Positions 21,861 to 45,443 of a DNA stretch of 64,000 nt are shown here, one piece after another. The stretch covers positions 287,007 to 351,006 of the forward strand of contig CAVSZZ010000001.1 of the NCBI GenBank assembly GCA_963732595.1, given 5' to 3'. Numbering within the stretch: the first letter of the stretch is position 1; each line of letters begins with the position of its first letter. The notes under the pieces were generated by a model. That model was not told where the DNA came from. It did not search any database and saw only the letters and a program-made list of their open reading frames with translations. Position numbers and translations under genes: made by a program. The stretch comes from an uncultured Chloroflexia bacterium. GTDB taxonomy: Bacteria > Chloroflexota > Anaerolineae > Anaerolineales > Anaerolineaceae.

Positions 21861-21866
21861 CCGATC

Positions 21867-23542: not shown

Positions 23543-24853
23543 ATGATGTCTGATCCCAATCCGACCCGTCAGCGCGCAATCGATGAGCTTAAAGCGCTGA
23601 CCAAAGTTGCAGCAGCATTGGTTTCACCCAAGGATTTACCCGAGCTGCTCCAGGGGGTGATGCAATCCATCATAGAAGCGCTCAAACAAGCCGATATCGG
23701 AACGATCATGCTGTGGGATGAGCCCGGCAGCTGTTTTCGCCCGATCTCAGCATACGGTCTCAATCCAGGGCTTCTCGATGAAATAAAATTACATGCAGGT
23801 GAGTCCATAACCGGTAAGGTGTTCAACTCCGGTCAGGCTTGCCTGTTTTCCACCAGCGGGGATGTGTCTGAAGCCATGTCCGACATGGATCCCCACACCC
23901 GCCAGGTCATGATACGGGCGGCCGGGACAGATGCCATCCCACAATGTGTCATTGCGGCCCCGATCTCCGTGGCTGGGCAAAAATACGGGGTTCTTATCCT
24001 CGAAAGCATTCAAACAGATAATCCTTTTACCGATCAGGATCTCCCTTTTATCCAGACGCTGGCTGATTTAATTGCCCTGGCCGTTGACCGTTCAAGGCTC
24101 GAGATCCGCAATGGGGCGGATCGTGAATCCCTGCGGGTGGATCACCTGAGGAGCGAAGTGCTCGGCACGCTTTCCCATGAGCTTCGCCTGCCACTAGCCA
24201 CCATCCGAGGTTATGCCACGGCCATGCTGCTGGAAGAGGTAACCTGGAGCGAGGATAAGAAATTGGAGTTTCTGCGCCAGATCGAAAGCGCATGTGATGA
24301 CATGGATGGCATGTTGAAAGCGATCCTGGATTCTTCCCTGATCGCTGCTGATCAACTGGAGCTGGAGCTGCAGCCCGTGCGTTTGCAGCATGTCGCCAAC
24401 GAGATTGCCGGAGAGATCGAATATCGCAGTCCCGCGCATCACCCGGTGGTGGATTTTCCGAGCGACTTTCCGCTCATCTCAGCTGATCTGCACTGGATCA
24501 GGCAGGTATTCCGTAACCTGATCGATAATGCCATAAAATACTCACCCAATGGAGGTCTGATCGTTATCCGGGGTGAAGCCCGCGCTGACGATGTGGTGGT
24601 TAACATCTCCGACCAGGGCGTTGGTATCTCTCCCGAGCATTTGATCCCATTATTTGAAAAATATTTCAGGGTCCGGAATGCTGCCACCCTGCATATCTCC
24701 GGAACCGGGTTGGGCCTTCCGATCGCGCGCGCGATCGTTGAGGCACACGCGGGTCATATCTGGGTCGACAGTCATCTCGATGAGGGCACGACCATCTCCT
24801 TTTCCCTGCCCATTGATCGTAAACAGACCTCTCCAAAGAGGAAGGCGTCATGA
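23543..24853 (+). CDS. Cytoplasmic GAF-domain sensor histidine kinase
   Basis: 436 aa. N-terminal GAF-like domain, H-box SHELRLPLATIRGY, N-box NLIDNAIKYSP, G-boxes DQGVGI and GTGLGLPIA. No TM segments. Confidence 0.85.
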   Translation: MMSDPNPTRQRAIDELKALTKVAAALVSPKDLPELLQGVMQSIIEALKQADIGTIMLWDEPGSCFRPISAYGLNPGLLDEIKLHAGESITGKVFNSGQACLFSTSGDVSEAMSDMDPHTRQVMIRAAGTDAIPQCVIAAPISVAGQKYGVLILESIQTDNPFTDQDLPFIQTLADLIALAVDRSRLEIRNGADRESLRVDHLRSEVLGTLSHELRLPLATIRGYATAMLLEEVTWSEDKKLEFLRQIESACDDMDGMLKAILDSSLIAADQLELELQPVRLQHVANEIAGEIEYRSPAHHPVVDFPSDFPLISADLHWIRQVFRNLIDNAIKYSPNGGLIVIRGEARADDVVVNISDQGVGISPEHLIPLFEKYFRVRNAATLHISGTGLGLPIARAIVEAHAGHIWVDSHLDEGTTISFSLPIDRKQTSPKRKAS

Positions 24854-25599
24854 CCAAAAAAGAGCGCGTCCTGGTAGTCGATGATGAACCCCGGCTGATC
24901 ACCCTGGTACGTGAAATACTCAACGCGACCGGTTATGAGGTTAGCGCCGCCTCAAGCGGCCTGCATGCCATCGAAGCCGTTGCCATCGAAAAGCCTTCCC
25001 TGGTACTCCTGGATATCATGCTGGTCGGCGGTATCGATGGGTATGAGGTCGCCCGCCGTATCCGTCAATTTTCGACAGTCCCGATCATCATGCTGACAGC
25101 CAAGGTCACCGAATCTGATCTGTTGAGAGGCTTCGAGTCAGGCGCCGATGACTATATTACAAAACCATTTTCATCCAAAGAACTGCTCGCACGTATCCGG
25201 GCGGTATTAAAACGATCCCAGGATGAAAAGGAAAACGCTTCGGATGCTGTGATCGTCTGTGGTTTGCTGAGAATCGAGCTGGCTCGCAGGAGGGTGACCC
25301 TGGAAGGGCACGAGATCAAGCTGACCTCAACCGAATACCGGTTATTACACGAGCTGGTCATCCACCGCAACCAGGTCATGCTGCACGAACAACTTTTAAC
25401 CAACATCTGGGGCGAGGAATATCGTGGGGATCTTGAATACCTCCGTACTTATATCCGTCATCTGCGTTCGAAACTCGAGGTAGACCCAACCCATCCAAAA
25501 TTAATCATTCGAAGCCGGGGTGTCGGGTATATGTTCGTTTGCCCTGAATCCGGCGATCTGAAAACACCTGGTCTGGATCAGCGTATTCCAATCTCCTGA
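24850..25599 (+). CDS. OmpR/PhoB-family response regulator (receiver + winged helix)
   Basis: ATGA start/stop overlap with the kinase gene. Receiver motifs VLVVDDE, LLDIML, MLTAK. C-terminal LTSTEYRLLHEL...RGVGYMF winged-helix domain. Confidence 0.9.
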   Translation: MTKKERVLVVDDEPRLITLVREILNATGYEVSAASSGLHAIEAVAIEKPSLVLLDIMLVGGIDGYEVARRIRQFSTVPIIMLTAKVTESDLLRGFESGADDYITKPFSSKELLARIRAVLKRSQDEKENASDAVIVCGLLRIELARRRVTLEGHEIKLTSTEYRLLHELVIHRNQVMLHEQLLTNIWGEEYRGDLEYLRTYIRHLRSKLEVDPTHPKLIIRSRGVGYMFVCPESGDLKTPGLDQRIPIS

Positions 25600-25629
25600 T
25601 TCCTCTCAGAGTATGTTGAAAGTCGGAAG

Positions 25630-25649
25630 TATTTTCACACTATTTTCAC
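25630..25649 (+). promoter_or_regulatory. Direct repeat TATTTTCAC-N2-TATTTTCAC (11-bp period), candidate OmpR-type regulator binding site
   Basis: Identical 9-mers at 25630-25638 and 25641-25649, 31 nt after the response-regulator stop and ~150 nt upstream of the redox operon start. Confidence 0.4.
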
Positions 25650-25801
25650 GTAACGGCATTCCTTTTTCATCCATTCATCACCTGATCGGTCTAAACTGAA
25701 TACTGGCACTCGTCGTCGCAAGACGATGCGATGATACACATCCGCAAGGTTACCGGGTACTACAGCGCAGCGTTTCACCTTGACCAGCAGGAGAGTGTTG
25801 A

Positions 25802-26278
25802 TTGCCAGTTAAAATAGATGAAATTAATGAAATCATCAACAAGGAGGCCGTGGGGGATGGCTCACTGATCGCCGCCCTGGAGGAAATTCAGGAACGATTT
25901 CGATACCTTCCTGCTGAAGCCTTGATCCTGGCCAGTGAACGTCTGGGGGTGCCGCTTTCCCAGGCATACAGCGTAGCCACCTTTTATAACGCATTCAGCC
26001 TGAAACCTAAGGGTAAACACTGCCTGCATGTCTGCATGGGCACGGCCTGCCATGTGCGGGGCAGCCCTCAGGTACTCGACCGGCTCGAAGCCAAACTGGG
26101 GATCAAGGCCGGGCAGACCACCCGTGATCACCTGTTCACACTGGAAACAGTCAACTGCCTGGGTGCCTGCGCGCTTGGACCGATTGTGGTCACGGATGGC
26201 GAATATTCCGGTCAGATGACCACTGTCAAGACCGACCGCTTGATCAAATCCCTGCTGCAGACTGAGGCCGAGGAATGA
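25802..26278 (+). CDS. NuoE/HoxE/HydC-like thioredoxin-fold [2Fe-2S] protein
   Basis: TTG start 7 nt after AGGAGAG. Cys motif CLHVCMGTAC ... CLGAC (C-x4-C-x35-C-x3-C), as in NuoE/HndA/HydC. Confidence 0.8.
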   Translation: MPVKIDEINEIINKEAVGDGSLIAALEEIQERFRYLPAEALILASERLGVPLSQAYSVATFYNAFSLKPKGKHCLHVCMGTACHVRGSPQVLDRLEAKLGIKAGQTTRDHLFTLETVNCLGACALGPIVVTDGEYSGQMTTVKTDRLIKSLLQTEAEE

Positions 26279-26279
26279 C

Positions 26280-28146
26280 ATGGTTGCTTTAACCTCGCCC
26301 ACTGAATTGGATAGTCTGCGTTCGAAACTGTCTGAAATTTACACACCGGATTTGCCTTGCATCACCGTCTGTGGTGGGACAGGCTGCCGGGTCTATGGAA
26401 GCGAAAAAGTCTGGGAGGCATTTCGCCAGGAGCTGGCCACCCGTAAAGTGGCCGCCGGGCTGACCATGGACGTGAAAGTCACCGGTTGTCATGGTTTCTG
26501 TGAAAAAGGGCCCCTGGTTGTCATCAGACCACAGGGGATTTTTTATTCGCACGTCAAGGTCGAAGATGTTCCTGAGATCATCACCGAAACCATCCTGGGC
26601 GGTAAATTAGTCGAGCGATTGCTTTACGTTGACCCCCAGAGTGGAGACAAAGTCGCACACGAGAAGGAGATCCCTTTTTACAAGAACCAGTACCGGCTCA
26701 TCCTGAACCTCAATGGCGATCTTGATCCCCTGCAGATCGATGAGTATATTGCGCGCGACGGATACAGTTCCCTGGCAAGGGCCCTGGTAAAAATGAGCCC
26801 GGATGAAGTGATCGCCACCATAAAAGCTTCCGGGCTGCGCGGGCGTGGCGGGGCAGGCTTTCCGACCGGGATAAAATGGGAGCTTTGCCGGAATAACGTT
26901 AAGAAGATTGGCACAGGCTTCATCATATGCAACGCAGACGAGGGAGACCCGGGTGCCTATATGGATCGCTCGATCATGGAGGGCAACCCGCACCGCGTAA
27001 TCGAAGGCATGTTGATCGGTGCTTATGCCATGGGGGTTCATCAGGGATACGTGTATATCCGGAATGAGTATCCTCTGGCCGTGAAGCATCTGAGACAGGC
27101 CATCTCACAGGCTCGCGAATATAACCTGCTGGGAAAGGACATCCTGGGGACAGGTTTCGAATTCGATCTGCATGTCAAACTGGGCAGCGGCGCCTTCGTG
27201 TGTGGTGAAGAAACAGCCCTGATTGCATCCATCGAGGGGCGGGTCGGAGAGCCACGCCCGCGTCCTCCCTACCCGGCAGAATCCGGCCTGTGGGGAAAAC
27301 CAACCAACATCAATAATGTAAAAAGCTGGTCATCCATTCCGATCATCATCGATCACGGGGCAGACTGGTATGCCGGGATCGGTACAGAAAACAGCAAGGG
27401 TACGATGATCTTTTCCATCGTGGGAAAAATCAATAATACCGGCCTGGTTGAAGTACCCATGGGCATCACCCTGAGAAAGCTGATCTTCGATATCGGCGGC
27501 GGCATTCCGAATGGGAAGCACATTAAAGCCGCCCAGCTTGGTGGTCCATCAGGAGGTTGTTTGCCAGCTGAGCACCTGGATGTGCCGATCGACTACGCAT
27601 CCCTGACCGAGTTGGGAGCCATCATGGGCTCCGGCGGGCTTGTCATTGCAGATGAAGATACCTGCATGGTGGATTTTGCCCGCTATTTCATGCATTTCAC
27701 CCAGGAAGAATCCTGTGGGAAATGCGTCCCCTGTCGCATTGGGACGAAAGCCATGCTGTCCACGCTCGAACGGATTTGCTGCCGGCGAAGGCCACCCGGG
27801 AGATATCGATTATCTGCTCGAGCTGGCCGAGACCATTAAAAGCAGCTCGCTCTGTGCCCTGGGGCAGACAGCTCCCAACCCGGTTTTAACTACCCTGCGC
27901 TATTTCCGGGATGAATATGAAGCTCATATCAATGAAAAACGCTGTCCCGCCAAAGTATGTAAAGGTTTGATCACCTATACGATCCAAGCGGAAAAATGCA
28001 CCGGCTGCATGGTCTGCCTGCGCAACTGCACCAGCGGCGCGATCAGCGGCGAGAAACAGAAGGCCCACACTATCGACCCTGACCTTTGTTCACGTTGCGG
28101 TGTGTGCATCAACCTGTGTAAATTCGAGGCGATCAGTGTTCAATAA
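26280..28146 (+). pseudogene. NuoF/HydB-like NAD(H)-binding FMN/FeS subunit with extra N-terminal [2Fe-2S] and C-terminal 2x[4Fe-4S] domains, one frameshift
   Basis: ORFs 26280-27839 and 27640-28146 tile one protein: [43 protein letters not shown], then (other frame) [24 protein letters not shown] and CTGCMVC...CSRCGVC. The frame switch is near 27774-27785. Confidence 0.8.
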
Positions 28147-28158
28147 TGGAGGTGTGAC

Positions 28159-28854
28159 TTGATCCACCTGACGATCGATGACAGGCAAATTGAAACTGCC
28201 GAAGACAGGAGCCTGCTGGAGGCCTGTCGTGAGAATGGCATTTACATACCCACGCTCTGTTATCACCCGGCGCTAGAGCCCTATGGCGCCTGCCGCCTGT
28301 GTGTGGTTGAGCTGACGGTTCCCAATCGGAAGCCGCGGCTGGTGGCATCCTGCGTTTACCCGTGTGAAGAGGGGGCGGTGGTTAAGACGAACACCGAACT
28401 CGTTCAGCGCAGCCGCCGTGTCACAGCTGAATTGATACTGGCCGGCTCATACGATACCGCTGAAGCTCTGGCGATTGGAAAAGAGTTGGGAGTCACGGAA
28501 ATACGTTACAAGCTGCCGGAAGAAAATGCCTGTGTCTTGTGCGGTTTGTGTGTTCGAGCCTGTCATGAGATCGTGGGCGTGAGTGCCATCAGCGTCATAC
28601 AACGCGGTATCTCCAAAAAAGTGGCCACCCCATTCCAGGTAAAATCCTCGCGCTGTATTGGGTGTGGAACCTGTGTCCTGGTCTGCCCAACCGGCGCCTT
28701 TAAGTTCGACTCTGTGACCGGGTTTCAATATGTTTCGCCTTCCCAGTCCTCCTACCGGCTCGGATACTACCGGATGGGGGGAGAACTGGACCTGCATCCA
28801 ACTTTCGAGCAAGATATCCCTTCCCTGTTGGCCAACCCAAAGGAGGCTGAATAA
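28159..28854 (+). CDS. NuoG/HydA N-terminal-like ferredoxin: [2Fe-2S] plus 2x[4Fe-4S], no catalytic domain
   Basis: TTG start 6 nt after GGAGG. CYHPALEPYGACRLCVVE..ASC (plant-type 2Fe-2S pattern), CVLCGLCVRAC and CIGCGTCVLVCP clusters. 231 aa, ending before any hydrogenase or molybdopterin domain. Confidence 0.75.
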   Translation: MIHLTIDDRQIETAEDRSLLEACRENGIYIPTLCYHPALEPYGACRLCVVELTVPNRKPRLVASCVYPCEEGAVVKTNTELVQRSRRVTAELILAGSYDTAEALAIGKELGVTEIRYKLPEENACVLCGLCVRACHEIVGVSAISVIQRGISKKVATPFQVKSSRCIGCGTCVLVCPTGAFKFDSVTGFQYVSPSQSSYRLGYYRMGGELDLHPTFEQDIPSLLANPKEAE

Positions 28855-28857
28855 TCC

Positions 28858-30938
28858 ATGGGTGAGATCAGCATGCAGGAAAAGAACCGGATCGGGGTTT
28901 TCATCTGTGAGTGTGGGGGCCGTATCGAGGGGAAGATCGATACCAGCGAACTGCAAAGGCAACTCAATCAGCTGGATGGCGTGGCATATATCTGCACACG
29001 AAGCATATCCCTGCAGTAAAGACGGGCAGGCGCGGATGCAAAAAGCCGTCGCTGACCATTCATTGGATCGCATCCTCCTGGCTGGCTGTACGCCCCGCCT
29101 GATCGAAAAGCTGTTCCAACGAACCGTCAGATCAGCTGGAGTCGATCCAGACCTCCTGCAAATCGTGGATATCCGCGAGCAAGTTGCCTACGTTCACAGC
29201 GATCCCGAAATTGCCTTGCAGAAGGCAACCAACCTGATCGAGATGGGTGTGGCGCGCCTGATGGCTTCATCCGGATCACAAGCTCACCAAAGTCCGATCA
29301 TTCAAAAAACACTTGTGATCGGCAGCGGTCTCGGTTCACTGACGGCCGCCCTGGTTCTGGCTGAACAGGGGGTCCAGCTCCTGATCGTTGAAGAAACGGG
29401 AGCATTGGCCAGTGGATCTCACAGTTTGGATGGGAATACGAACCAGGCGATCATTGAAAAGTGTGAGCAAGTCCTCAATCATCCCATGATCGAGGTCTTT
29501 TTCAATTCCAGGATACTTGAGGTCACAGGTCACCCTGGAGAATACAAGGTGACGATTCAACACGGTGATGGGGTAACTCAATTCGAGACCGGTTCGATCA
29601 TTGTCAACAATGGCACACAAATTAAAACCCCCGGCTCAGGCCGCTGGTATGACCGTTTGAGAGTTAAATCGCAGTTTGAGTTTGAAGCAGAACTCAAACT
29701 GGCAGCTGATACCGGGCAGAAACTTGCCGTGAAGGATGTCGTCATGATCTTCTGTGCGGATGAAGCTCAGATCGAGCATTGCTCGCGTGTTTGCTGCAAC
29801 GCCGGTATCCGCCAGGCACTCAGGGTGAAGGAACTAAATCCGCGATGCCAATGTCACCATCCTGTTCCGTGAAATCTATCTGGGCGGTATCGGTGAGGAT
29901 TACGAAGCCGAGTTGGTGCGCGCCCGCAGCCTGGGTGTGACATTCTTCCGTTACCGGCGTGAAGCGCCACCATCGATTGGGGAGACGATCGATGTGATCG
30001 ACACCCTGACCGGTGAACCTGTCAAATTAACCTGTGATCGGGTTGTATTGAGCATGCCGGTCATCCCCCAGGAGAATTCCAAAACACTTTCTGCCCTGCT
30101 CGGGCTCCCGCTCGATGAATCCGGTTTTATGGCCGAACCCAGGGTTCGTCTGAAACCGGATCGCTTTCTCGAATCCGGTATTTTCGTGTTGGGCAGCGCA
30201 CAACAACCGGCCGATTCAGAGGAAGCACTCTTCCAGGCTTACCTGATCGCCGCACGGGCCCAACGCTTCCTTAAACAAAAAAACATCACCCTGGAAACGC
30301 CGGTAGCCGCTATCGATCCGAAGATCTGCACGGGTTGCGGGAATTGCCCACAGGTGTGTCCAACCAATGCCATCAGGCTGGAAAAACAGGAGGGCATCCT
30401 CTCACTTTCTGAAGTCGATGAATTGAATTGCATCGGGTGTGGAAATTGTGTTGTGGTCTGCCCGGTGAAAGCCATCAGCCTGCCCGGTTGGGATAACGTG
30501 GAAATCCCGGCTCAGATCAGTGCCGCCTTGAAACCGAAACAGAACGACTCGCTTAAAGTGGTCGCCCTGACCTGTGAGTGGAGTGCGTATGGTGCTGCCG
30601 ATATGGCCGGCGCCCGCCATCTGCCCTACCCTTCTGATGTAATTATCATGCGCATGAACTGCTCAGCCCGCTTTGATCCATATCATATCCTGTGGGCATT
30701 TCTCAATGGGGCAGATGGCGTTTTCCTGGGTGCCTGCCCGGTGGGCGATTGCCATTACGGGATTGGCAATCTCTATGCCCGGGAACGGGTTGACAAACTT
30801 CAGACTGAACTTAAAGCGCATGGGATCGATCCGCGCAGACTGCGGTTGGAGTACATCACGGTCGATGATGGGGAGAAATTCTCGCGGGACATCACCGATT
30901 TTGTCAAACAATTGAAAACGGATATCAAGAAAAAATGA
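28858..30938 (+). pseudogene. HdrA-like FAD/FeS oxidoreductase fused to a C-terminal MvhD domain, two frameshifts
   Basis: Three frames tile one protein: IGVFICECGGRI...PCSKDGQ...LLAGCTPR (HdrA N-terminal cluster), VIGSGLGSLTAALVLAEQG (FAD), CSRVCC, CTGCGNCPQVCP/CIGCGNCVVVCP, then an MvhD-like LTCEWSAYGAADMAG...ACPVGDCHY. Switches lie near 28990-29002 and 29838-29848. Confidence 0.75.
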
Positions 30939-30973
30939 ATCTTAAACATCGTTTTTCAGATTAGGAGGAAGAA

Positions 30974-32140
30974 ATGGCGACACGCCTGGAACCCGAAGTC
31001 TGGTCGCTCGACAATTGTGCAGCCTGTGGGATGTGTGTGGCAGCCTGCTCCAAACAGGTGCTGGCCTGGGAGGGAGGCGATCACCCGGTCTTGCAGGATC
31101 GCATAAAAACGGTGGGGTATACCAAAAGCCACCTTGACAGCTGCACTTTCTGTCAACATCTCTGCGAGGAGGTCTGCCCCCGCCTGGAACACTGGTTACC
31201 ATTTGAACCCAGATTGACCCTGGCAGCCAGTGCCCGGGCTCCCCTGAAATCCGGGGCACCCGGCGATGTCATCCGTGCGATCCTCACCACTGCCCGCAGT
31301 GCCGGCCTGATCGATGGTGTGGTCATGCTGGATATCGATCCGTGGGAATTAAAACCAACAGCGCGGGTTGCTTCCTCTGTGGAAGATATCGTCAGGGCGG
31401 TCGGACCCCAGTATCTATGGGCGCCGGTCTTCGATGCCTTGAATGAGGCTGTCTTCGTTCACCACATGGAAAATATTGCGGTGGTCGGAACGCCCTGCGC
31501 AGCCCAGGCCGTTCGAAAGCTCAAGCTGTCACAGAATCCACGCCTGAAACCTTATCAATCCGCCATCCGCTTGACGGTGAGCATGTTCTGCACGGGGATG
31601 TACAAACCGGAAATGATCACGAACCTGCTGACCAAGCGTTTGAATATCGCTCCGGAACAGGTGAAGCGATTGGAAGTCTCACCGGATCGGGAATCATTGC
31701 GCGTCGTCCTCTGGGATGGGAGCCAGCAGACGATCAAGCGGGAGCAAGCCGAGAGTTTTTCCAAACCAGGCTGTGGCAGCTGCGATGACTACCTGGGCGA
31801 ATCAGCTGACATCGCAGTCGGGACCCTGGGCGCGCCGGAGAATTACTCCACCCTGATCGCACGCACCCGGACCGGCGAGATCTTCCTCCGGAATGCCACC
31901 CAGATGAACCTGCTCGAGACCACCCACCAGGTGGATGAAGACCTGCTGGCTGCAGCGTCTGCCGAGAAGGACCGGCGGACACGCGCCCAGGCTTTTAAGG
32001 ACCTTCAAATACTGATGCTGGATGGACTGGCCGACCCCCTGAAACGCAATGATGCCATCCAACTCTTTACCAAACTGTACCGGACCCCATCCCGGACCGG
32101 CGAAACCAGTTCCATTCGCAGCGGCTGCACGGGATGCTAA
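30974..32140 (+). CDS. FrhB/FdhB/FpoF-family flavo-FeS protein (coenzyme F420 hydrogenase/dehydrogenase beta-like)
   Basis: AGGAGG RBS. N-terminal CAACGMCVAAC and CTFCQHLCEEVCP clusters, then VVGTPCAAQAVRKL, FCTGMY, CGSCDDYLGESADIAVG blocks typical of the FrhB family. Confidence 0.7.
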   Translation: MATRLEPEVWSLDNCAACGMCVAACSKQVLAWEGGDHPVLQDRIKTVGYTKSHLDSCTFCQHLCEEVCPRLEHWLPFEPRLTLAASARAPLKSGAPGDVIRAILTTARSAGLIDGVVMLDIDPWELKPTARVASSVEDIVRAVGPQYLWAPVFDALNEAVFVHHMENIAVVGTPCAAQAVRKLKLSQNPRLKPYQSAIRLTVSMFCTGMYKPEMITNLLTKRLNIAPEQVKRLEVSPDRESLRVVLWDGSQQTIKREQAESFSKPGCGSCDDYLGESADIAVGTLGAPENYSTLIARTRTGEIFLRNATQMNLLETTHQVDEDLLAAASAEKDRRTRAQAFKDLQILMLDGLADPLKRNDAIQLFTKLYRTPSRTGETSSIRSGCTGC

Positions 32141-32151
32141 GGAGTTGAATC

Positions 32152-32802
32152 ATGGATATCCTGGATGCTCAATCAAAAGACTTGAAGACGATCAATCATC
32201 AAATCAAAACGTCTTTGAACGGGACGCCGCTCAAGGTCAAGAACATCTCGAAACTGCATGGGGTGGCTGCCGGTCTGAAGCATGGTGAACTGCAGGTGGA
32301 AGGTAATGCCGGTGATTACCTCGGCGTTTTGAATGCCGGGGCGACCATCCGGGTCAGCAAGAATGCAGCCAAATACCTGGCGGATAACATGACCAGCGGC
32401 ACGGTCATCATTGAAGGCAATGCCGACTACGGCGCCGGGGCATACTGTTATGGCGGCACGATCGTCATTCGCGGCTCGGCAGGCGATTTCACGGGAACCA
32501 TGAATAAAGGAGCCACCATCATCGTGGCCGGTGATGTCGGTGACGAAGCCGGGACCTACATGCTCAAGGGTGACCTGGTGGTGGTCGGAAATGCCGGTCA
32601 CAACTTCGCCAATTACCTGATTCGCGGGAATGTCTACCTGGGCGGTGAATGCAAGAGCTACGGTCACAACACAAAACTGGAACCCCTGACCGAGCATGAT
32701 ATCGCTGCATTGCGCGGTTATTTTGAGGTTTACCAGATCAAATCCGATCCATCCACGTTTAAAAAGATCGTGGCGGCTTCAGAGAAGCCGTTCTACCACT
32801 AG
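32152..32802 (+). CDS. GXGXG-motif protein (glutamate synthase alpha-subunit C-terminal domain / FwdC-like)
   Basis: 216 aa of repeated beta-helix turns: VEGNAGDYLG, IEGNADYGAG, IRGSAGDFTG, VAGDVGDEAG, VVGNAGHNFA. This matches the stand-alone domain 3 of archaeal-type GOGAT. Confidence 0.8.
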   Translation: MDILDAQSKDLKTINHQIKTSLNGTPLKVKNISKLHGVAAGLKHGELQVEGNAGDYLGVLNAGATIRVSKNAAKYLADNMTSGTVIIEGNADYGAGAYCYGGTIVIRGSAGDFTGTMNKGATIIVAGDVGDEAGTYMLKGDLVVVGNAGHNFANYLIRGNVYLGGECKSYGHNTKLEPLTEHDIAALRGYFEVYQIKSDPSTFKKIVAASEKPFYH

Positions 32803-32811
32803 GAGGTCACG

Positions 32812-34425
32812 ATGGCTATCACGGGTGCATATTGTGTCAGTGTCAACAAGGAACTCTGTATTAACGCTCGGATGCCGGGGAAGTGTGCAACCTGCGCGGA
32901 GGTTTGTCCACACGGTGTTTATGCGCTGGATGCGCAGAGTGGAGAAATGAGCGTCATCAATTTCAATGCCTGCGTCGGATGCCGCATTTGCGCTGAATTC
33001 TGCCCGGCGGATGCCATTCGTATCAACCCGGCGGAACCGGAACAGTTCACACGCTATCCCTGGACGCTGGCGGCCATCGAAGAGATCCATTACAAAGCTC
33101 AAACCGGTGACTACCTGATGCGCGGATTTGGGACACAGGGACAGAATCCGAATTTCGATATGATCACGATCGTACCCAGCCAAATCTCCAGCGCCGCGCC
33201 ACGTGATAAATACCGCGAGGAATGCGACCTTGAGGTGGCGATCGGCGAAAATACCTGCGACAAACCCATCGTATTGAAAGCCCCGTTCGTCTGGGCAGCC
33301 ATGTCCTTTGGCGCGTTGAGCAAGGAAGCCAAAATGGCCCTGGCGATTGGTGCCGCCCTGACCGGCACGGCGACCAATACCGGAGAAGGCGGTTTGCTGC
33401 CCGAGGAACAATGGCTGGCCCGTGGATATAACGACCGCCAGATGGCCAATAAAAAAAATGATCCGGGTGGATATCTGATCATCCAGTGGTCCACCGGGCG
33501 CTGGGGGGTGTCTGCTGAGTATCTGAACAGTGGTGATGCCGTTGAAGTGAAAATTGGCCAGGGTGCCAAACCCGGCATGGGGGGCCACCTACTGGGTGCC
33601 AAGGTCACGGAGGATGTATCCCGCATTCGCGGCGTTCCGGTCGGGTCAGATGCCTTGAGCCCCTGTCGTTATTACGACGTCCAGACGCTGGATGATATGA
33701 AACACATGGTGGCTTTCTTGAGGGATGTTACGGATTACCAGTTCCCCATCCTGTTCAAATTGGGACCGTCCCGCCCCTATGCGGATGTGTCTGCCTGTAT
33801 TGAAGCCGGGGCAGATGCCATCAGCATCGACGGCATGGTTGGCGGCACGGGCTGTTCTCCGGATGTTGTGACACAGGGCGTGGGCATTCCAACCATCGCC
33901 TGCATCCCACCGGCAGTCCAGGCATTGAAAGATCACGGTGTTCACCGCAAGGTCAAGTTGATCGCCCTGGGCGGGATTCGCAATGGACTGGATGCATTCA
34001 AGGCCATGGCACTTGGCGCGGATGCTGCCGGGTTCGGATCGGCTGCAGAAATTGCGATGGGCTGCCGGGTTTGCTACGCCTGTCAGAAGGGCAACTGCCC
34101 GTACGGGATCACCAGTGCACGGCCGGAACTGCGCGCCCGCCTGGACCCCGTCGTGGTCGGGCAGCGCCTGGCAAACTTCATCCACGCCTGTGCTGAAGAA
34201 GTCAAGATCCTGACCATGCTGTCAGGTCACTCGAGCATCAAGGAACTATCACCTGAAGATCTCAGGGCAATGGATCTAAATACCGCTGCCATAACCGGCC
34301 TCAAGTTGTGCGGTTATGAACGCCCCTTGCCCATATGGGAGGAAGCGCTCAAGAAACCATCCGGGAACGGCCATAAACGAACAGCCAGCTCACCTGAAAA
34401 GTCTCTTCGCCAACCTGCTGGATGA
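32812..34425 (+). CDS. Glutamate synthase FMN-binding domain (GltB domain 2-like) with N-terminal 2x[4Fe-4S] ferredoxin
   Basis: CATCAEVCP and CVGCRICAEFCP; then NTGEGG, EVKIGQGAKPGMGGHLLG, GADAISIDGMVGGTG, LGGIRNG, and CRVCYACQKGNCPYGI. No Ntn-amidotransferase domain. Confidence 0.8.
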   Translation: MAITGAYCVSVNKELCINARMPGKCATCAEVCPHGVYALDAQSGEMSVINFNACVGCRICAEFCPADAIRINPAEPEQFTRYPWTLAAIEEIHYKAQTGDYLMRGFGTQGQNPNFDMITIVPSQISSAAPRDKYREECDLEVAIGENTCDKPIVLKAPFVWAAMSFGALSKEAKMALAIGAALTGTATNTGEGGLLPEEQWLARGYNDRQMANKKNDPGGYLIIQWSTGRWGVSAEYLNSGDAVEVKIGQGAKPGMGGHLLGAKVTEDVSRIRGVPVGSDALSPCRYYDVQTLDDMKHMVAFLRDVTDYQFPILFKLGPSRPYADVSACIEAGADAISIDGMVGGTGCSPDVVTQGVGIPTIACIPPAVQALKDHGVHRKVKLIALGGIRNGLDAFKAMALGADAAGFGSAAEIAMGCRVCYACQKGNCPYGITSARPELRARLDPVVVGQRLANFIHACAEEVKILTMLSGHSSIKELSPEDLRAMDLNTAAITGLKLCGYERPLPIWEEALKKPSGNGHKRTASSPEKSLRQPAG

Positions 34426-34460
34426 TTTCTCATTCTCATTGATGAGAAGAGGAGGTTGAG

Positions 34461-36995
34461 ATGCCTGACCTGCAAACCGACCAACATCTGGCAAACCAGA
34501 TGATCGAAAATGCGGTGGAAAATTGTGCCCGCAGGCTTTTCGATGGTGACACACAGGAGGTTTACCACAGCCTGCAACAGGGTCGATGCGATGTTTGCGG
34601 ACAACTCTCCTTGCAGCTCGTCAGCCAGGTTGGAAGATACCTGGGCGAACTCGACCATACGGTTAAAGCGGTCTACCAACTGGCACCCGAATCACAGGTT
34701 GGCGTTCAACCGCACGGTGACCAGGTTGATGAAAACTATCATCCCGGTTTGAACCTGGTCGTGTGGGTGGAACGCAAGAATCCGGCTCTCATTGCCCTGG
34801 GAGGGACCCTTGAAAAGGTATTAACCGACAGCCGCCGAAAAGTTGGCTGCAGCCATGCCCTGCCAGCCTGCTTCACCTTCAACCTTCAAACAGTGGATGA
34901 TCGTGACATCCTGGAAGGGCGCGGCATGGGCCTGGTGGTTAATGCCGGTTATATCAAAAGCATGCGGGTCTGGTCACGAGATGACGCATCACCCGGCCTG
35001 CCGGATGGATTTGAACAGCTCCCCCTCAACCTCGATATTGTCCCTGAGGAGCGCCTGTTCCAGATGGCCAGGGAAATCGAAGGTTTGTCCGAACCCGAAC
35101 GCTCGAACCGTCAGCATCATCTCAGAGAGCTTAAAGTAACCCTGATCCGCAAGATCATCAGCGATCACCTGGCATATATCAACCTTGCACGGGAGTGGCT
35201 CACATTCGATGACCTGGAGACGATCCACTCACGCAAGCTGGGAGCCGGCCGAATCGGCGGTAAATCAGCCGGCATGCTGCTGGCTTACCGCATCCTGAGC
35301 GATACCGCCGAAGAGCCCATTCGGAAACAACTGCAAATTCCTGAATCCTACTACCTGGGTTCAGATCTGATGTACACCTTCATGGCCATGAACGGCCTGA
35401 TCCACTGGCACGATCAAAAATACAAACCGGAGTCGAAAATACGCGGTGAGTATCAGCAACTCGAGCTCGAGTTCCTGAAAGGCCACTTCCCCCCGGAAGT
35501 CCTGGCGGAGCTGCGAACGATCCTTAACCTCATCGGGAAAAGGCCTGTCATTATCCGCTCGTCCAGTCAATTGGAGGATAATTTTGGGACCTCCTTTGCC
35601 GGCAAATACACCAGCGTTTTTTGCCCTAACCAGGGTAACCTGGAGGAAAACCTGATAGCCCTGACCAGGGCAATCGCCCGGGCGTATGCCAGTACTTTTC
35701 GACCGGAAGCGCTTTTATACCGGCGGGATCGAAAACTGCTGGATTACGATGAACGCATGGCCATCCTGATCCAGGTCGTGCATGGTGAACGCTGGGGCAG
35801 GTATTACCTGCCGTTTGCAGCCGGGGTTGCCTTCAGTCATAATATCTATCGCTGGGCACCGGAGATCCGGCGTGAGGATGGATTCTCCCGCCTGGTATGG
35901 GGTCTGGGAACCCGGGCGGTCGAGCGGGTGGGCAACGATTATCCCCGCCTGGTCGCCCTCAGCCATCCCGCCATCCAACCGGATGATTCGGCAGAGGCCA
36001 TTCGCCGCTACTCCCAACGATTTGTGGATGTGATCGACCTTGAAGATAATACGCTGAAAACCCTTCCCATCCTGGATGTTTTGAACAGCAATTATCCGGC
36101 AATACGCCTGGTGACCCAGTTGGAACAGGATGGATACTTCACCACGCCCGTCAGTCGTGTCATGGCATCCGATCTGCCCAACCTTGCGATCACCTACGAT
36201 GGTTTACTCAGGCATACCGGGTTTCCGGGTTTGCTCTCCCGCGTTCTGCATATTCTTGAAGAGGAATATCACACGCCGGTGGACATCGAATACACCGTCA
36301 GCCTGCCGGACCCTGATTCGAACCAACAGGATGTGATGTTGACGCTCTTACAATGCCGCCCGCAAAGCAGCCTGAAACAGGGGAAACAAGTCAGCTTGCC
36401 GCGCAATTTACCGAAAGAGGATATCCTCTTCACCTCGGACTTTATCGTTCCCAGGGGTTACCTGCCCCGCATCACCCACGTGGTCTTCGTCGTGCCGGAT
36501 GCATATTTCAAGCTTGGGGATGAGACTGCCCGGAATGAGATCGGCCGGCTGGTCAGCCAGCTGAATTCCAAACTGGACAAGAAATCATTCATCTGCATCG
36601 GTCCCGGCAGGTGGGGATCTGCCAATCTTGACCTGGGGGTGTACGTGGCTTATGCCGATATCTGCAATGCGGGCGCATTAGTGGAATTATCCGGCAAAGG
36701 GGAAGGTCAGGTTTCAGAAGCCTCTCTGGGAACGCATTTCTTCCAGGACCTGATGGAAGCCCAGATCTACCCCATCGTGATCTCACTGGACCGACCGGGG
36801 ACCACTTTCAACCAGGATTTCTTCCTCAAGACGCCCAACGTCCTGAAGGATTACATCGAAGTAAAGGGAAAAGCTGGAAATAGCCTGCGTCTGATCGATG
36901 TGGCTGCCTACCGGCCGGGACATCATATCGAGGTGGTCATGGACGATGAAAAGGGGCAGAGCATCGCGTATTTGAAAGCGGATAAGCCCGAATAA
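34461..36995 (+). CDS. PEP/pyruvate-binding (PPDK_N ATP-grasp) domain protein with unknown N- and C-terminal regions
   Basis: 844 aa. GAGGAGG RBS 35 nt after the gltB-like gene. The central block GGKSAGMLLAY...VIIRSSSQLEDNFGTSFAGKYTSV resembles the nucleotide-binding domain of PEP synthase/PPDK. I did not see the GGxTSH swivel-histidine motif. Confidence 0.6.
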   Translation: MPDLQTDQHLANQMIENAVENCARRLFDGDTQEVYHSLQQGRCDVCGQLSLQLVSQVGRYLGELDHTVKAVYQLAPESQVGVQPHGDQVDENYHPGLNLVVWVERKNPALIALGGTLEKVLTDSRRKVGCSHALPACFTFNLQTVDDRDILEGRGMGLVVNAGYIKSMRVWSRDDASPGLPDGFEQLPLNLDIVPEERLFQMAREIEGLSEPERSNRQHHLRELKVTLIRKIISDHLAYINLAREWLTFDDLETIHSRKLGAGRIGGKSAGMLLAYRILSDTAEEPIRKQLQIPESYYLGSDLMYTFMAMNGLIHWHDQKYKPESKIRGEYQQLELEFLKGHFPPEVLAELRTILNLIGKRPVIIRSSSQLEDNFGTSFAGKYTSVFCPNQGNLEENLIALTRAIARAYASTFRPEALLYRRDRKLLDYDERMAILIQVVHGERWGRYYLPFAAGVAFSHNIYRWAPEIRREDGFSRLVWGLGTRAVERVGNDYPRLVALSHPAIQPDDSAEAIRRYSQRFVDVIDLEDNTLKTLPILDVLNSNYPAIRLVTQLEQDGYFTTPVSRVMASDLPNLAITYDGLLRHTGFPGLLSRVLHILEEEYHTPVDIEYTVSLPDPDSNQQDVMLTLLQCRPQSSLKQGKQVSLPRNLPKEDILFTSDFIVPRGYLPRITHVVFVVPDAYFKLGDETARNEIGRLVSQLNSKLDKKSFICIGPGRWGSANLDLGVYVAYADICNAGALVELSGKGEGQVSEASLGTHFFQDLMEAQIYPIVISLDRPGTTFNQDFFLKTPNVLKDYIEVKGKAGNSLRLIDVAAYRPGHHIEVVMDDEKGQSIAYLKADKPE

Positions 36996-37069
36996 GGTGG
37001 CGTTTCCAAAATCAAGTATAAGGACTGTTTATCCAGCGTGTGAATTGTCATTGCGAGCCGCGGTCTTTG

Positions 37070-37132
37070 CTTTTTGCGGCGTGGCAATCCATTAATCAAA
37101 AGTCCTTTAGCGTTTAATCCTAGTGGTTAATG
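37070..37132. repeat. 16-bp inverted repeat (1 mismatch) forming the core of a nested palindromic element
   Basis: cgtggcaatccattaa (37070-37085) pairs with ttaatggattgccgcg (37117-37132). Outer arms are tgtcattgc (37036-37044) and gcaataaca (37155-37163). An extra hairpin ggatgc-tcc-gcatcc lies at 37135-37149. Confidence 0.6.
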
Positions 37133-37343
37133 GATTGCCGCGTTGGATGCTCCGCATCCCGTAGGCAATAACAGCCACTGGCTATGTTAGGCAAGTTCCA
37201 TGGTCGCTTATCGTTTATTACTTGCATTCAAAGAACGGGTGGCTGGCATGCTTAGAATTTGTATTAATTAGATTCACCGCCTTTATAATTAGCCGGTTGG
37301 GCAATATATTTAATAAATTATGAACAAATATATTTCATAAAAA

Positions 37344-37643
37344 TTGGATCTGATTATATGGATAAGTGGATTAGGTCTAGAGCTGTTTCCAGTATTAGAC
37401 CTCCCAAAGGTGAGCGGATTCAAACCATTTACTGAAAATGTTGACGTGTTATTACCTAATGGGAAAAAGGTAAAATACTCTGCTCAGTTTTTGTTAAAAC
37501 ATATCAACGTCGGCAATAGAATGGGGCAATGGAAAATAGTAATTTTGTTACCTAGAGTAAATAAAAAGGACATTCCAGCTGGAAGTGAGATAATTGTGAC
37601 TGAAACTATTGCCTCTCGTCTAACGCTTATCAGAGAAGAATAA
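37344..37643 (+). CDS. Hypothetical small protein (weakly supported ORF in the AT-rich island)
   Basis: 99-codon ORF with a TTG start only, no clear RBS and no recognisable motif. It is the only sizeable + strand ORF in the 1.35-kb gap. A weak hairpin with a T7 run follows at ~37650-37677. Confidence 0.2.
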   Translation: MDLIIWISGLGLELFPVLDLPKVSGFKPFTENVDVLLPNGKKVKYSAQFLLKHINVGNRMGQWKIVILLPRVNKKDIPAGSEIIVTETIASRLTLIREE

Positions 37644-37767
37644 TCCAGAAACGAGATATACCCATACTCCGTTTTTTTGCGAATAATCCAATAATAAACA
37701 TCAGCCGATATATATGAATAATTAAGCGGCATAGCCCCCAAAGAACGGCTGTCTGGTTTTTCTTCAT

Positions 37768-37792
37768 CCTCTCCCCCGAAACGGGGGAGAGG
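37768..37792. repeat. GC-rich perfect hairpin cctctccccc-gaaac-gggggagagg
   Basis: 10-bp perfect stem embedded in AT-rich sequence. It shares the arm cctctccc with the hairpin at 38060-38093. Confidence 0.6.
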
Positions 37793-45419: not shown

Positions 45420-45443
45420 CGGTCCATCATGATTGATAACCGC

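Follow-up and report, generated by a model that had tools for sequence, protein, structure and literature searches.

In a 64,000-nucleotide stretch of DNA from an uncultured Chloroflexia bacterium (contig CAVSZZ010000001.1, positions 287,007 to 351,006; hereafter the window), genes for a NuoE/NuoF pair and an HdrA-MvhD fusion stand next to genes for an FrhB-family protein and a split glutamate-synthase-like module. Do these proteins form one enzyme, and which reaction might it catalyse? A model-generated interpretation of the nucleotides (the sequence-only reading) had proposed an electron-bifurcating oxidoreductase, and we followed this up by domain and structure matching and by comparison with related loci.

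The operon, its regulators and its neighbours

Eight genes, all on the + strand, are separated by gaps of 1, 12, 3, 35, 11, 9 and 35 nt, and a GGAG/GAGG core lies 5-12 nt 5' of the start codon in 8/8 of them, which bears out the layout of same-strand genes with 1-35 nt gaps and GGAG-type ribosome-binding sites described beforehand. In relatives, stop and start codons overlap between operon genes. The seven redox genes occur in identical order in 29/29 bacterial loci long enough to show order, including that of the isolate Longilinea arvoryzae KOME-1, with FrhB identities of 46-93% across the 29. The operon is conserved across Anaerolineae bacteria, as the idea of a single conserved operon had it, and its genes are not scattered or without co-occurrence in relatives, an outcome that the sequence-only reading had named as refuting it. 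All ten genes are under purifying selection (omega 0.03-0.09, dN/dS against the nearest relative), and this, together with the retained order, argues that the arrangement is not due to chance.

The reading frame of nuoF is broken by one extra base at ~27779/27780 and that of hdrA by one extra base each at 28996 and 29843, as judged against two intact relatives. The sequence-only reading had listed such frameshifts as a possible refutation; they are present in the sequence, but decay does not follow from them. Three frameshifts in two genes could mean that the operon is decaying in the source organism, with nuoF and hdrA as pseudogenes, yet we consider this highly improbable. Elsewhere in the window, at least five more genes or gene parts unrelated to the operon are interrupted by single frameshifts (two in Aminotran_5, one in LacI and one in each of two GH3 genes), and genes are split in the same way on L046, a related ENA contig. 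The nuoF and hdrA orthologues are intact in L001, L003 and L014, those of L001 having exactly the predicted corrected lengths (621 and 692 aa), and omega after frame correction is as low as 0.037 for nuoF and 0.091 for hdrA. Thus, given window-wide frameshifts, intact relatives and dN/dS of 0.03-0.09, the three look like assembly errors rather than decay. Decay, if true, would concern the source strain only and leave the conserved system unaffected.

Upstream lie genes for a GAF-HisKA-HATPase sensor histidine kinase (23543..24853, +) and an OmpR-family response regulator with receiver and Trans_reg_C domains (24850..25599, +), both assigned by Pfam. In about 20 related loci a kinase gene likewise lies directly upstream and points the same way, and the synteny of the response regulator with kinase and operon is kept in relatives. 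A direct repeat, TATTTTCAC-N2-TATTTTCAC (25630..25649, +), has an 11-bp period and lies ~160 nt upstream of nuoE. A TTTTCAC(G) pair at 11-bp spacing recurs in L001, L003, L006 and L016, all with the upstream regulator, and is absent from the compared loci without the kinase/regulator pair. We regard the repeat as a candidate response-regulator box at which binding is predicted from sequence, and the operon is probably regulated by this kinase-regulator pair.

The operon had been put forward as an eight-gene redox system; its eight genes stand, but the eighth (34461-36995, +) encodes no redox protein. Its 844-aa product has a Cys-rich N-terminal domain (~170 aa, CxxC...Cx6C), a PPDK_N ATP-grasp domain (2e-49) and then a C-terminal 200 aa, and neither end has a Pfam match. 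The full-length PPDK_N protein is encoded 3' of GltB2 in about 20 loci, and in a divergent clade this position is taken by a separate gene for the Cys-rich domain alone. We propose that it is an accessory or regulatory partner of the complex.

When essentially every ORF of 120 aa or more in the window was scanned against Pfam, no hydrogenase catalytic subunit, CCG-domain (HdrB/C) protein or molybdopterin enzyme was found, in agreement with the earlier reading, and no GATase_2. The window ORFs likewise include no F420 biosynthesis gene and no tungsten enzyme. Nor does a glutaminase (GATase_2) gene occur within 10 kb in the four loci that were fully annotated. In 13 loci glutamate dehydrogenase genes are found no more than 10 kb away, at five or more different positions and in both Bacteria and Asgard archaea. 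Prolyl-oligopeptidase genes are among the cluster neighbours, and in L001 an amino-acid permease gene adjoins the operon. Asgard archaeal loci carry HdrA/MvhD-FrhB-GXGXG-GltB2 without NuoEF, so that HdrA/MvhD remains beside FrhB-GltB even where NuoEF is absent.

Cofactor modules of the redox proteins

Pfam and PDB matches agree with the domain identities first assigned to these proteins. The BfuC/NuoE-type [2Fe-2S] subunit (25802-26278, TTG start) matches 2Fe-2S_thioredx (PF01257, 3e-46) and has Cys78/83/119/123. The HydB-type NuoF (BfuB; 26280-28146, 621 aa when frame-corrected) matches Complex1_51K (1e-45) and NADH_4Fe-4S (1e-35) with N-terminal 2Fe-2S and C-terminal Fer4 domains, and carries sites for the N-terminal 2Fe-2S cluster, FMN/NADH, an N3-type 4Fe-4S cluster, a Cys/His B2 cluster and C-terminal 2x[4Fe-4S]; it aligns over its full length with subunit B of Acetomicrobium mobile NiFe-HydABCSL (7T2R, E 2e-252), all cluster cysteines included. 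The third protein (28159-28854) is a short BfuA-type ferredoxin with Fer2_4 (4e-18) and Fer4 domains, carrying a 2Fe-2S (A1) and two 4Fe-4S clusters (A2, A4), and its sequence is without the His-ligated A3 cluster and the A5 cluster; its best solved relative is WorA of WorABCSL (9MQX_A, E 9e-38). By sequence and cofactor content the trio fits the Bfu domain definition of Schut et al. 2022 (PMC9304861) and would constitute a Type-2 BfuABC module. Two bifurcation-capable modules had been suggested to converge on a glutamate-synthase-like end; the terminal module stands, but to judge from the sequences only NuoE/NuoF/ferredoxin passes every test for a bifurcating module, and HdrA is doubtful.

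The HdrA part of the fusion (28858-30938, 692 aa when frame-corrected) has an N-terminal 4-Cys cluster, a TrxR-type FAD domain with CSRVCC and a C-terminal 2x[4Fe-4S] ferredoxin domain, and matches methanogen structures (8RVU, E 6e-70; 5ODC, 3e-69); the MvhD part matches FlpD/MvhD in Pfam (1e-38) and MvhD chains (8e-29). HdrA2 is the best NCBIfam match (478 bits, below the cut-off of 1100). The ferredoxin insert previously ascribed to this HdrA proved to be the C-terminal ferredoxin domain, since alignment to HdrA structures showed that the inserted domain, which in methanogen HdrA passes electrons to ferredoxin, is absent. Moreover, no HdrBC partner is present in the bacterial loci, Arg occupies the K409 position, and the cysteines of the FAD-domain cluster are lost in about one third of HdrA orthologues. 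HdrA may thus relay electrons and not act as a second site of bifurcation. In each of the solved complexes that it matched, MvhD carries electrons from one protein to another.

The FrhB-type subunit (30974-32140) belongs to a FAD/[4Fe-4S] family whose members serve other enzymes as electron-input modules. It has an N-terminal 2x[4Fe-4S] domain, an FrhB_FdhB_C match (1e-32) and an invariant C-terminal CxxC; 14/14 cysteines are conserved in orthologues. Among solved structures it is matched best by FrhB-like, F420-reducing subunits from the Fwd and CODH of Ethanoperedens (8RJA_E, 4e-32; 8RIU_B). The GXGXG subunit (32152-32802; PF01493, 3e-17) is a beta-helix like GltB domain 3 and FwdC, its PDB matches being FwdC and the GltS C-terminal domain. 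GltB2 (32812-34425) joins a 2x[4Fe-4S] ferredoxin (Fer4) to a Glu_synthase FMN/2-oxoglutarate domain (PF01645, 5e-104) with a 4-Cys cluster motif, and matches Synechocystis Fd-GltS (1LLW, 2e-44). These matches sustain the glutamate-synthase-like end. The 2-oxoglutarate-binding residues of Fd-GltS (E903, Q969, K972, R992) are conserved here and invariant in 37 GltB2 orthologues. The departures from canonical GltS (E975M, Q978H, HH1006/7YY and a fourth cluster cysteine), which imply that the substrate could differ, are subfamily-specific and invariant (M256, H259, Y287, Y288 and the 4-Cys cluster). Modules related to this one occur in fusions with many electron-input modules of unrelated kinds, CCG plus rubredoxin and polyferredoxins among them, and we know of no glutaminase-less 'FMN-binding glutamate synthase family' module that has been biochemically characterised.

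Relation to known complexes

The combination was without counterpart among characterised enzymes, in that no paper on it was found in the literature searched. To this extent the earlier statement that it matches no characterised complex holds, but its wiring has a precedent: by analogy it most resembles the class II benzoyl-CoA reductase BamBCDEFGHI of Geobacter/Desulfosarcina, the 'Bam-Bfu' of Schut et al. 2022 (PMC9304861). Both combine, in one cluster, BfuABC homologues (BamGHI in the reductase) with a flavoprotein of HdrA type and a protein of MvhD type, and both have a short BfuA with A1, A2 and A4 clusters only; two possible bifurcation sites in series were proposed for Bam-Bfu (PMC9304861). 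The catalytic ends differ, Bam-Bfu having a tungsten AOR-type BamBC acting on benzoyl-CoA (-622 mV) and an HdrBC/D-like BamD, whereas the operon ends in FrhB, GltB3 and GltB2 with a proposed high-potential couple and no CCG protein in the window.

In the solved WorABCSL and NiFe-HydABCSL of A. mobile, which supply the best matches for BfuA and BfuB (7T2R_B), a BfuABC 'plug' likewise sits on extra catalytic subunits. The third substrate of these enzymes (H2 or aldehydes) donates electrons at low or mid potential straight to BfuA; here HdrA-MvhD and FrhB would be interposed and the terminal couple would be far more positive. Methanogen Mvh-Hdr and Fdh-Hdr-Fmd complexes (5ODC, 7BKB, 8RVU) share the HdrA N-terminal cluster domain, the TrxR-type FAD domain with CSxxCC and the C-terminal 2x[4Fe-4S], and their MvhD connector adjoins an FrhB/FdhB-family partner, as proposed here. 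They differ in having the inserted ferredoxin domain, HdrBC and K409, and in that our MvhD is fused to HdrA, as in HdrA2. The archaeal-type split glutamate synthase and putative FGltS also have separate GltB2 (ferredoxin and FMN) and GltB3 (GXGXG), and in FGltS an FrhB-family module feeds electrons instead of GltD. In contrast to these, the operon has no GltB1 glutaminase, shows the subfamily-specific motif changes and would draw electrons through Bfu and HdrA, not from diffusible F420H2 alone. A further bacterial HdrA/MvhD complex, Moorella thermoacetica MetFV-HdrABC-MvhD, reduces a substrate of fairly high potential with NADH, and a second bifurcation acceptor is suspected; HdrBC and MetFV set it apart from the operon, as does its lack of a Bfu module, FrhB and GltB.

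Proposed reaction and alternatives

We infer from sequence a single complex, together with its substrate, direction, function and bifurcation. The seven redox proteins would form one soluble flavin/iron-sulfur complex in which the first three provide a NAD(H)- and ferredoxin-reactive core, wired by the A4 cluster of BfuA to HdrA-MvhD. The FrhB-type subunit would attach at the MvhD [2Fe-2S], in the manner of FdhB on MvhD in methanogen Fdh-Hdr-Fmd, and electrons would pass from FrhB through the ferredoxin domain and 4-Cys cluster to the FMN of a glutaminase-less glutamate synthase (GltB2 and GltB3). Since there is no glutaminase subunit, any glutamate synthesis would have to use free ammonia or a partner protein whose gene lies elsewhere. 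One complex is supported by natural fusions, GXGXG-Fer4-GltB2 in the same order as the operon genes (P0128), GXGXG-GltB2-GltD (P0150) and NuoF-GltD inside the same cluster (L025 and L028), and by the Bam-Bfu precedent for BfuABC with HdrA and MvhD; the link to glutamate is supported by the nearby glutamate dehydrogenase genes and the invariant 2-oxoglutarate-binding residues. Against the proposal count the missing glutaminase, the departures of GltB2 from canonical GltS, the features that make bifurcation by HdrA doubtful, the F420H2-dependent reductase family gene of L035 (see below) and the Asgard versions without NuoEF. The third couple of known Bfu enzymes lies between the NAD and ferredoxin potentials, and glutamate/2-oxoglutarate, lying outside, also counts against it.

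The same genes could encode two enzymes, FrhB-GltB3-GltB2 being a cofactor-dependent glutamate synthase whose cofactor is regenerated by a separate NADH/ferredoxin-dependent BfuABC-HdrA/MvhD reductase. An F420-dependent FGltS proposed in methanogens and ANME archaea would be the model; FrhB proteins are classic F420H2 oxidase modules, archaeal paralogues cluster with glutamate synthase subunits, and an F420-Bfu type has already been proposed. An F420H2_quin_red family (F420H2-dependent reductase) gene between hdrA and frhB in L035 raises the possibility of a diffusible cofactor for FrhB, and the FrhB-GltB part occurs without NuoEF in Asgard loci. Such a division is nonetheless unlikely, given the invariant order of genes coupled without gaps, the retention of HdrA/MvhD with FrhB-GltB where NuoEF is missing, the connector role of MvhD and the absence of F420 biosynthesis genes from the window ORFs. 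We are similarly doubtful that a complex of the same architecture acts on a different 2-oxo/imino acid or other substrate: the missing glutaminase, the invariant subfamily-specific residues and the varied electron-input fusions of related modules would suit this, but E903, Q969, K972 and R992 are invariant, glutamate dehydrogenase recurs beside 13 loci in two domains of life, and NuoF-GltD and GltB-GltD fusions exist.

The calculated reaction is near equilibrium and could therefore run in reverse, from glutamate to 2-oxoglutarate and NH4+, with reduced ferredoxin aiding NAD+ reduction (confurcation) during peptide or amino-acid fermentation. The neighbouring glutamate dehydrogenase, prolyl-oligopeptidase and (in L001) permease genes would fit, and cultured Asgard archaea are amino-acid fermenters. 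This catabolic direction is quite improbable, however, as a fermenter would gain little by giving up low-potential ferredoxin for NADH, and an ordinary glutamate dehydrogenase, encoded next door, already does the job.

We therefore return to the biosynthetic complex. The E0' of 2-oxoglutarate/glutamate, calculated from the textbook glutamate dehydrogenase equilibrium, is ~-0.13 V and that of NADH -0.32 V. With NADH as the electron donor, 2-oxoglutarate would be reductively aminated with free NH3, and the surplus of ~190 mV would be spent on co-reducing ferredoxin: ~2 NADH + Fd(ox) + 2-OG + NH4+ -> 2 NAD+ + Fd(red) + Glu. At a probability of roughly 45%, the seven redox genes would thus encode an NADH- and ferredoxin-linked 2-oxoglutarate/glutamate oxidoreductase complex, a Type 2 member of the Bfu family.

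Gene content, order and integrity of the operon

Eight open reading frames (ORFs) lie on the + strand between 25802 and 36995, separated by 1, 12, 3, 35, 11, 9 and 35 nt, and a GGAG or GAGG core stands upstream of the start codon in all eight. Pfam searches assigned them, in order, to a NuoE-type 2Fe-2S protein (BfuC; PF01257, 3e-46), NuoF (Complex1_51K, PF01512, 1e-45; NADH_4Fe-4S, PF10589, 1e-35) with an additional thioredoxin-like 2Fe-2S domain at the N-terminus and a 2x[4Fe-4S] domain at the C-terminus (Fer4 at residues 568-619), a 231-aa ferredoxin (Fer2_4 plus 2x[4Fe-4S]), an HdrA-like flavoprotein with a C-terminal MvhD/FlpD domain (1e-38), an FrhB-family protein that begins with a dicluster ferredoxin domain (PF04432, 1e-32; PF04422, 9e-8), a GXGXG protein (PF01493, 3e-17), GltB2, which carries a ferredoxin and a Glu_synthase FMN domain (PF01645, 5e-104), and an 844-aa PPDK_N protein (2e-49). 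ORF spacing and Pfam thus bear out the operon and domain calls of an earlier, sequence-only reading with two amendments, one discussed with HdrA below, the other being that gene 8, counted there in the redox operon, encodes a PPDK_N protein and not a redox subunit. No hydrogenase, CCG protein, molybdopterin enzyme or class II glutaminase was detected by Pfam in essentially all window ORFs of at least 120 aa, in agreement with the same reading, which had reported no hydrogenase, HdrB/C or molybdopterin protein in the window. Tungsten AOR-type BamB/BamC were likewise missing, as no window ORF matched an AOR or molybdopterin family in Pfam. Among the operon proteins no NCBIfam equivalog cut-off was passed except that of the generic NuoF model, and thus no named orthologue is applicable.

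About 790 homologues of the FrhB-type protein were found; almost all of those listed are 388 aa long, with 66-95% identity to it. Species-representative genomes were scanned and contigs looked up, which yielded 47 loci (L001 to L047). This gene-neighbourhood search, proposed in the sequence-only reading as a check on the operon, found the seven-gene order NuoE-NuoF-ferredoxin-HdrA/MvhD-FrhB-GXGXG-GltB2 to be identical in all 29 bacterial loci long enough to tell, while shorter contigs kept the same order as far as their sequence extends. The carriers are mostly metagenome-assembled genomes (MAGs) of Anaerolineae or Anaerolineales; one contig was binned as Zixibacteria, and an isolate, Longilinea arvoryzae KOME-1, has the cluster as well (NZ_DF967972.1, about 1.639-1.660 Mb). 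FrhB identity across the bacterial loci ranges from 46 to 93%. One locus, L044, gave a weak FrhB match (27%) within a different cluster (FrhB, AsrA/B-like, BfuABC, HdrA) and was left out of the orthologues. The GAF kinase and OmpR-type regulator genes are found upstream, and the PPDK_N protein downstream, in about 20 loci each.

The N-terminal domain of gene 8 (34461-34980) has the pattern CxxC...Cx6C and no Pfam match. In a divergent Anaerolineae clade this Cys-rich domain of about 170 aa occurs as a stand-alone gene after GltB2 (13467-13985 in L023), a position which suggests that this domain, and not the ATP-grasp part, may be the true partner of the cluster. When the first 260 aa of gene 8 were searched for homologues, only four fragments came back. 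Beyond gene 8, a low-GC stretch (about 47%; roughly 1.15 kb within 36996-38238) occupies the place where L001, a close relative with intact genes, has a gene for a 612-aa amino-acid permease; all that is left of such a gene in the window is its final 31 or so codons (38146-38238, - strand). Several ORFs within 2639-10316 have no Pfam match either, namely 2639-3400, 3351-4205, 4370-5902 and 6078-7610 on the - strand and 7734-10316 on the + strand; those at 4370-5902 and 6078-7610 are adjacent and each encode 510 aa.

The leader upstream of nuoE contains a direct repeat, TATTTTCAC-N2-TATTTTCAC, at 25630-25649 with an 11-bp period. This spacing is kept in four loci that bear the regulator, and the repeat is absent where the regulator is absent; it is therefore a candidate binding box for the OmpR-type regulator. 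Promoter and terminator scans of 25400-37500 gave sites no more frequent than in shuffled sequence. At gathering thresholds no Rfam family was found in the window, nor were any tRNAs, and a miRNA match in the leader from a permissive Rfam scan was dismissed as chance.

As assembled, nuoF contains one frame change and hdrA two, and the sequence-only reading held that such shifts, if real, would make the operon decayed. Decay in the host organism is the explanation to be weighed here, as two genes of the operon are indeed interrupted, at three sites in all. Each interruption is one inserted base by alignment to the intact relatives L001 and L003 (at about 27779/27780 in nuoF, and at 28996 and 29843 in hdrA), and removal of the inserted bases gives proteins of 621 aa (NuoF) and 692 aa (HdrA), the exact lengths of the L001 genes. 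Unrelated genes are broken alike: a class V aminotransferase twice (20632-21900), and a LacI-family regulator (44392-45500) and two GH3 glycosidases (52828-54784 and 56034-58383) once each. The 64-kb window thus holds at least eight frame breaks in operon and unrelated genes, and most of those outside the operon need a +1 frame change, as do the three within it. In L046, a related ENA contig, the ferredoxin, hdrA and gltB2 genes are similarly split. After correction, dN/dS against L001 was 0.037 for nuoF and 0.091 for hdrA, compared with 0.027-0.071 for eight other genes. Since unrelated genes are split in the same way, the relatives are intact and dN/dS falls in the range of other genes, the frameshifts are best read as assembly consensus errors, or very recent events at most, and they say nothing against a conserved system. 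Programmed or operon-specific frameshifting was rejected, the changes being single inserted bases at non-repetitive sites and unrelated genes also being hit. By these comparisons, selection on the operon is strong and its conservation strict.

The Bfu and HdrA-MvhD modules

In the bifurcating BfuABC/HydABC (Bfu) family, BfuB is defined by a Nuo51 FMN domain, an SLBB domain, a NuoF 4Fe-4S domain and a 4Fe-4S ferredoxin-type domain, BfuC by a NuoE-type 2Fe-2S domain and BfuA by at least 2Fe-2S and 4Fe-4S domains, Type 2 BfuA being without A3 and A5 (Schut et al. 2022, PMC9304861). Clusters B2-B5 (N-terminal 2Fe-2S, Cys/His B2 and C-terminal 2x[4Fe-4S]) are absent from non-bifurcating NuoF homologues. 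The NuoF protein carries all BfuB domains, with SLBB at 26.9 bits against a Pfam cut-off of 27. It matches the B subunit of the Acetomicrobium mobile NiFe-HydABCSL, a bifurcating enzyme (7T2R_B), over its full length (residues 28-618, E 2e-252), every B2-B5 cluster cysteine and the His/Cys B2 site being aligned. The small ferredoxin has Fer2_4 and two CxxCxxCxxxC motifs without an HxxxCxxC motif, as in Type 2 BfuA, and its best structure match is WorA (9MQX_A, 9e-38); in the tungsten aldehyde oxidoreductase WorABCSL this subunit is a short BfuA with clusters A1, A2 and A4 only. On alignment evidence, NuoE, NuoF and the ferredoxin thus match the Type 2 Bfu definition in domains and cofactors, and bifurcating activity is predicted. 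In two loci NuoF is about 1060 aa long (L025 3920-7108; L028 3899-7081) and carries, inside the cluster, a GltD/NfnB-like module (Fer4_20 plus Pyr_redox_2) in place of the C-terminal 2x[4Fe-4S] domain.

The HdrA part aligned in two blocks with methanogen HdrA structures (8RVU, E 6e-70; 5ODC, 3e-69) and the MvhD part with MvhD chains (8e-29). A TrxR-type FAD domain, an N-terminal 4-Cys cluster, a CSxxCC cluster and a C-terminal 2x[4Fe-4S] domain are all present; the N-terminal four Cys, the C-terminal dicluster and the MvhD Cys are invariant in 35 orthologues, and roughly one bacterial orthologue in three has lost the Cys of the CSxxCC cluster in the FAD domain. The inserted ferredoxin domain, which in methanogen HdrA is the route to ferredoxin, is missing: residues 235-291 lie opposite HdrA 236-386 and contain no cluster motif. 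The insert described in the sequence-only reading is in fact the C-terminal 2x[4Fe-4S] domain. At the FAD N5 position, K409 (with E356) has been proposed as the mark of a bifurcating HdrA. The equivalent residue is R318 in the window protein, and 32 of 35 sequences have R or K there (18 bacterial orthologues carry R and 10 carry K, and the Asgard sequences carry K); an xEFE motif at 273-276 is the probable counterpart of E356, in a region where the alignment is unanchored. HdrB or HdrC (CCG domain) was found neither in the window nor in the annotated bacterial loci. The claim of two bifurcation-capable flavoprotein modules is thus supported for Bfu, for which all sequence tests were passed, and doubtful for HdrA, which has no inserted ferredoxin domain and no HdrB/C; with the ferredoxin exit missing, HdrA may be only a two-electron/one-electron adaptor.

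Four Asgard archaeal loci contain HdrA/MvhD-FrhB-GXGXG-GltB2 without NuoEF. Their HdrA-MvhD proteins are about 1174-1201 aa long with two FAD domains (6469-9993 in L037; 6466-9990 in L040), and in L040 HdrC- and HdrB-like genes follow GltB2 (13751-15148). A second FrhB is encoded in L045 (8884-10005).

The FrhB and glutamate synthase-like end

FrhB has the N- and C-terminal domains of its family, with the [4Fe-4S] ligands Cys175, Cys206, Cys267 and Cys270 invariant. Its closest relatives are F420-reducing FrhB-like subunits on the Ethanoperedens formylmethanofuran dehydrogenase and CO dehydrogenase (8RJA, 8RIU), where they serve as plug-in electron modules. No F420 biosynthesis gene was found in the window, and the sole hint of F420 is a gene of the F420H2-dependent quinone reductase family (PF04075) in L035, from a groundwater Chloroflexi MAG, located at 8698-9213 between hdrA and frhB; a 250-aa hydrophobic ORF is inserted at the same place. 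FrhB ends in an invariant CxxC (Cys385/Cys388; 32125-32140), and the (near-)invariant Cys99 of GXGXG (32446-32448) and Cys138 of GltB2 (33223-33225) are surplus to the standard clusters. These four residues could form an inter-subunit cluster.

GltB2 matched the FMN domain of ferredoxin-glutamate synthase (1LLW) at 2e-44, and E903, Q969, K972 and R992 (Synechocystis numbering) are invariant in 37 bacterial and Asgard orthologues, as in the FMN domain of glutamate synthase (GOGAT). The departures from canonical GltS are E975M, Q978H, HH to YY, and four rather than three cluster Cys. In a search of 1.8 billion representative proteins, the 4-Cys 'EQK[MLI]HR' form proved common in small GltB2-type proteins and YY peculiar to this clade. 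The GXGXG domain (PF01493) of GOGAT is supplied by the preceding gene (GltB3), and in one relative, P0128, it forms a single protein with GltB2; other relatives are fused to GXGXG plus GltD (P0150) or to a CCG and rubredoxin module (P0184). In another, P0135, the conserved QGAKPG active-site motif is split by about 340 aa of intein-like, LAGLIDADG-type sequence. GATase_2 was found neither in the window ORFs nor, in the full precomputed annotation, within 10 kb of the cluster in L001, L002, L046 and L047.

In 13 loci, genes for Glu/Leu/Phe/Val-family dehydrogenases are found no more than 10 kb from the cluster, at differing positions: directly downstream of GltB2 (L011 and L012, in both at about 13776-15050, and L027), directly upstream of nuoE (L017, 3338-4552), between kinase and regulator (L033, L038), or after gene 8 on the opposite strand (L004, L020, L043). 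The Asgard clusters are flanked on both sides in L037 (4731-5993 and 14606-15868) and L045, and upstream only in L040. By our estimate chance alone would place a single-copy gene this near in fewer than 1% of genomes, the loci not being phylogenetically independent. Of the contextual evidence, these neighbours argue most strongly for a terminal module that handles glutamate, 2-oxoglutarate and ammonium.

Proposed electron route and its significance

Beyond the architecture and its conservation, we infer the following scheme. The proteins would form one complex, in which the Bfu core binds NADH and ferredoxin, BfuA acts as a wire to HdrA, and the [2Fe-2S] of the fused MvhD docks FrhB, as modelled on the docking of MvhD to FdhB in the Fdh-Hdr-Fmd complex. 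Electrons would then pass from FrhB through the ferredoxin domain and 4-Cys cluster of GltB2 to FMN, where 2-iminoglutarate made from 2-oxoglutarate and free NH3 would be reduced. From the textbook glutamate dehydrogenase equilibrium we calculate E0' of about -0.13 V for the 2-oxoglutarate/glutamate couple, near the value for the heterodisulfide that drives Mvh-Hdr bifurcation; NADH could therefore co-reduce 2-oxoglutarate/NH3 and ferredoxin, near equilibrium. We give this scheme, all parts taken jointly, a probability of about 0.45.

Its parts differ in strength. That the genes encode one conserved Bfu-type complex ending in a GltB-like module is probable, given the invariant gene order; the less likely rival is a pair of co-transcribed enzymes joined by a diffusible cofactor, for which FrhB kinship with F420-reducing subunits may be set beside the window's lack of F420 biosynthesis genes. 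That the substrate is 2-oxoglutarate/glutamate is only somewhat favoured. The GOGAT residues and dehydrogenase neighbours point to it, and the departures of GltB2 from canonical GltS leave room for a terminal module acting on a different substrate. The potential also counts against a simple Bfu mechanism: in known Bfu enzymes the third couple lies between NAD and ferredoxin, whereas the 2-oxoglutarate/glutamate couple lies outside. The complex might, with lower probability, be used catabolically.

The sequence-only reading recognised no characterised complex in this combination. For the wiring there is in fact a precedent in the class II benzoyl-CoA reductase Bam-Bfu, the closest known system, which also unites BfuABC homologues, an HdrA-type protein and MvhD and differs in its catalytic end. 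The GltB2/GltB3 end does appear new, as no Bfu, HdrA or FrhB complex ending in these proteins was found described in the literature searched. The Bfu survey lists Por, Codh, F420, Wor, Bam, Rub, Fdh, Mbh, Nuo, Nfn and hydrogenase functions and leaves 17 clades without one (PMC9304861), and the accessible portion of its supplement text has no Anaerolinea, Longilinea, Glt or Hdr entry. Bam-Bfu is the only Bfu-plus-HdrA system named there, and the window operon would thus be a second, simpler natural one.

The operon would bring the Bfu family a novel module for the third substrate and offer a testable function for the widespread glutaminase-less 'glutamate synthase family' proteins, directly so in the cultured carrier Longilinea arvoryzae KOME-1. 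The Asgard sub-cluster, flanked by glutamate dehydrogenases, would tie it to the amino-acid metabolism of these archaea. Little is understood of the energy metabolism of Anaerolineae, which rank with the most abundant bacteria in sediments and anaerobic digesters. More speculatively, and on balance doubtfully, the complex would be a glutamate synthase that bifurcates electrons, the first of its kind, with Bfu and HdrA flavin coupling sites in series and an HdrA/MvhD-FrhB-GltB core common to Anaerolineae and Asgard archaea. If so, the large potential drop from NADH to 2-oxoglutarate/NH3 would make reduced ferredoxin, and nitrogen assimilation itself would conserve energy.
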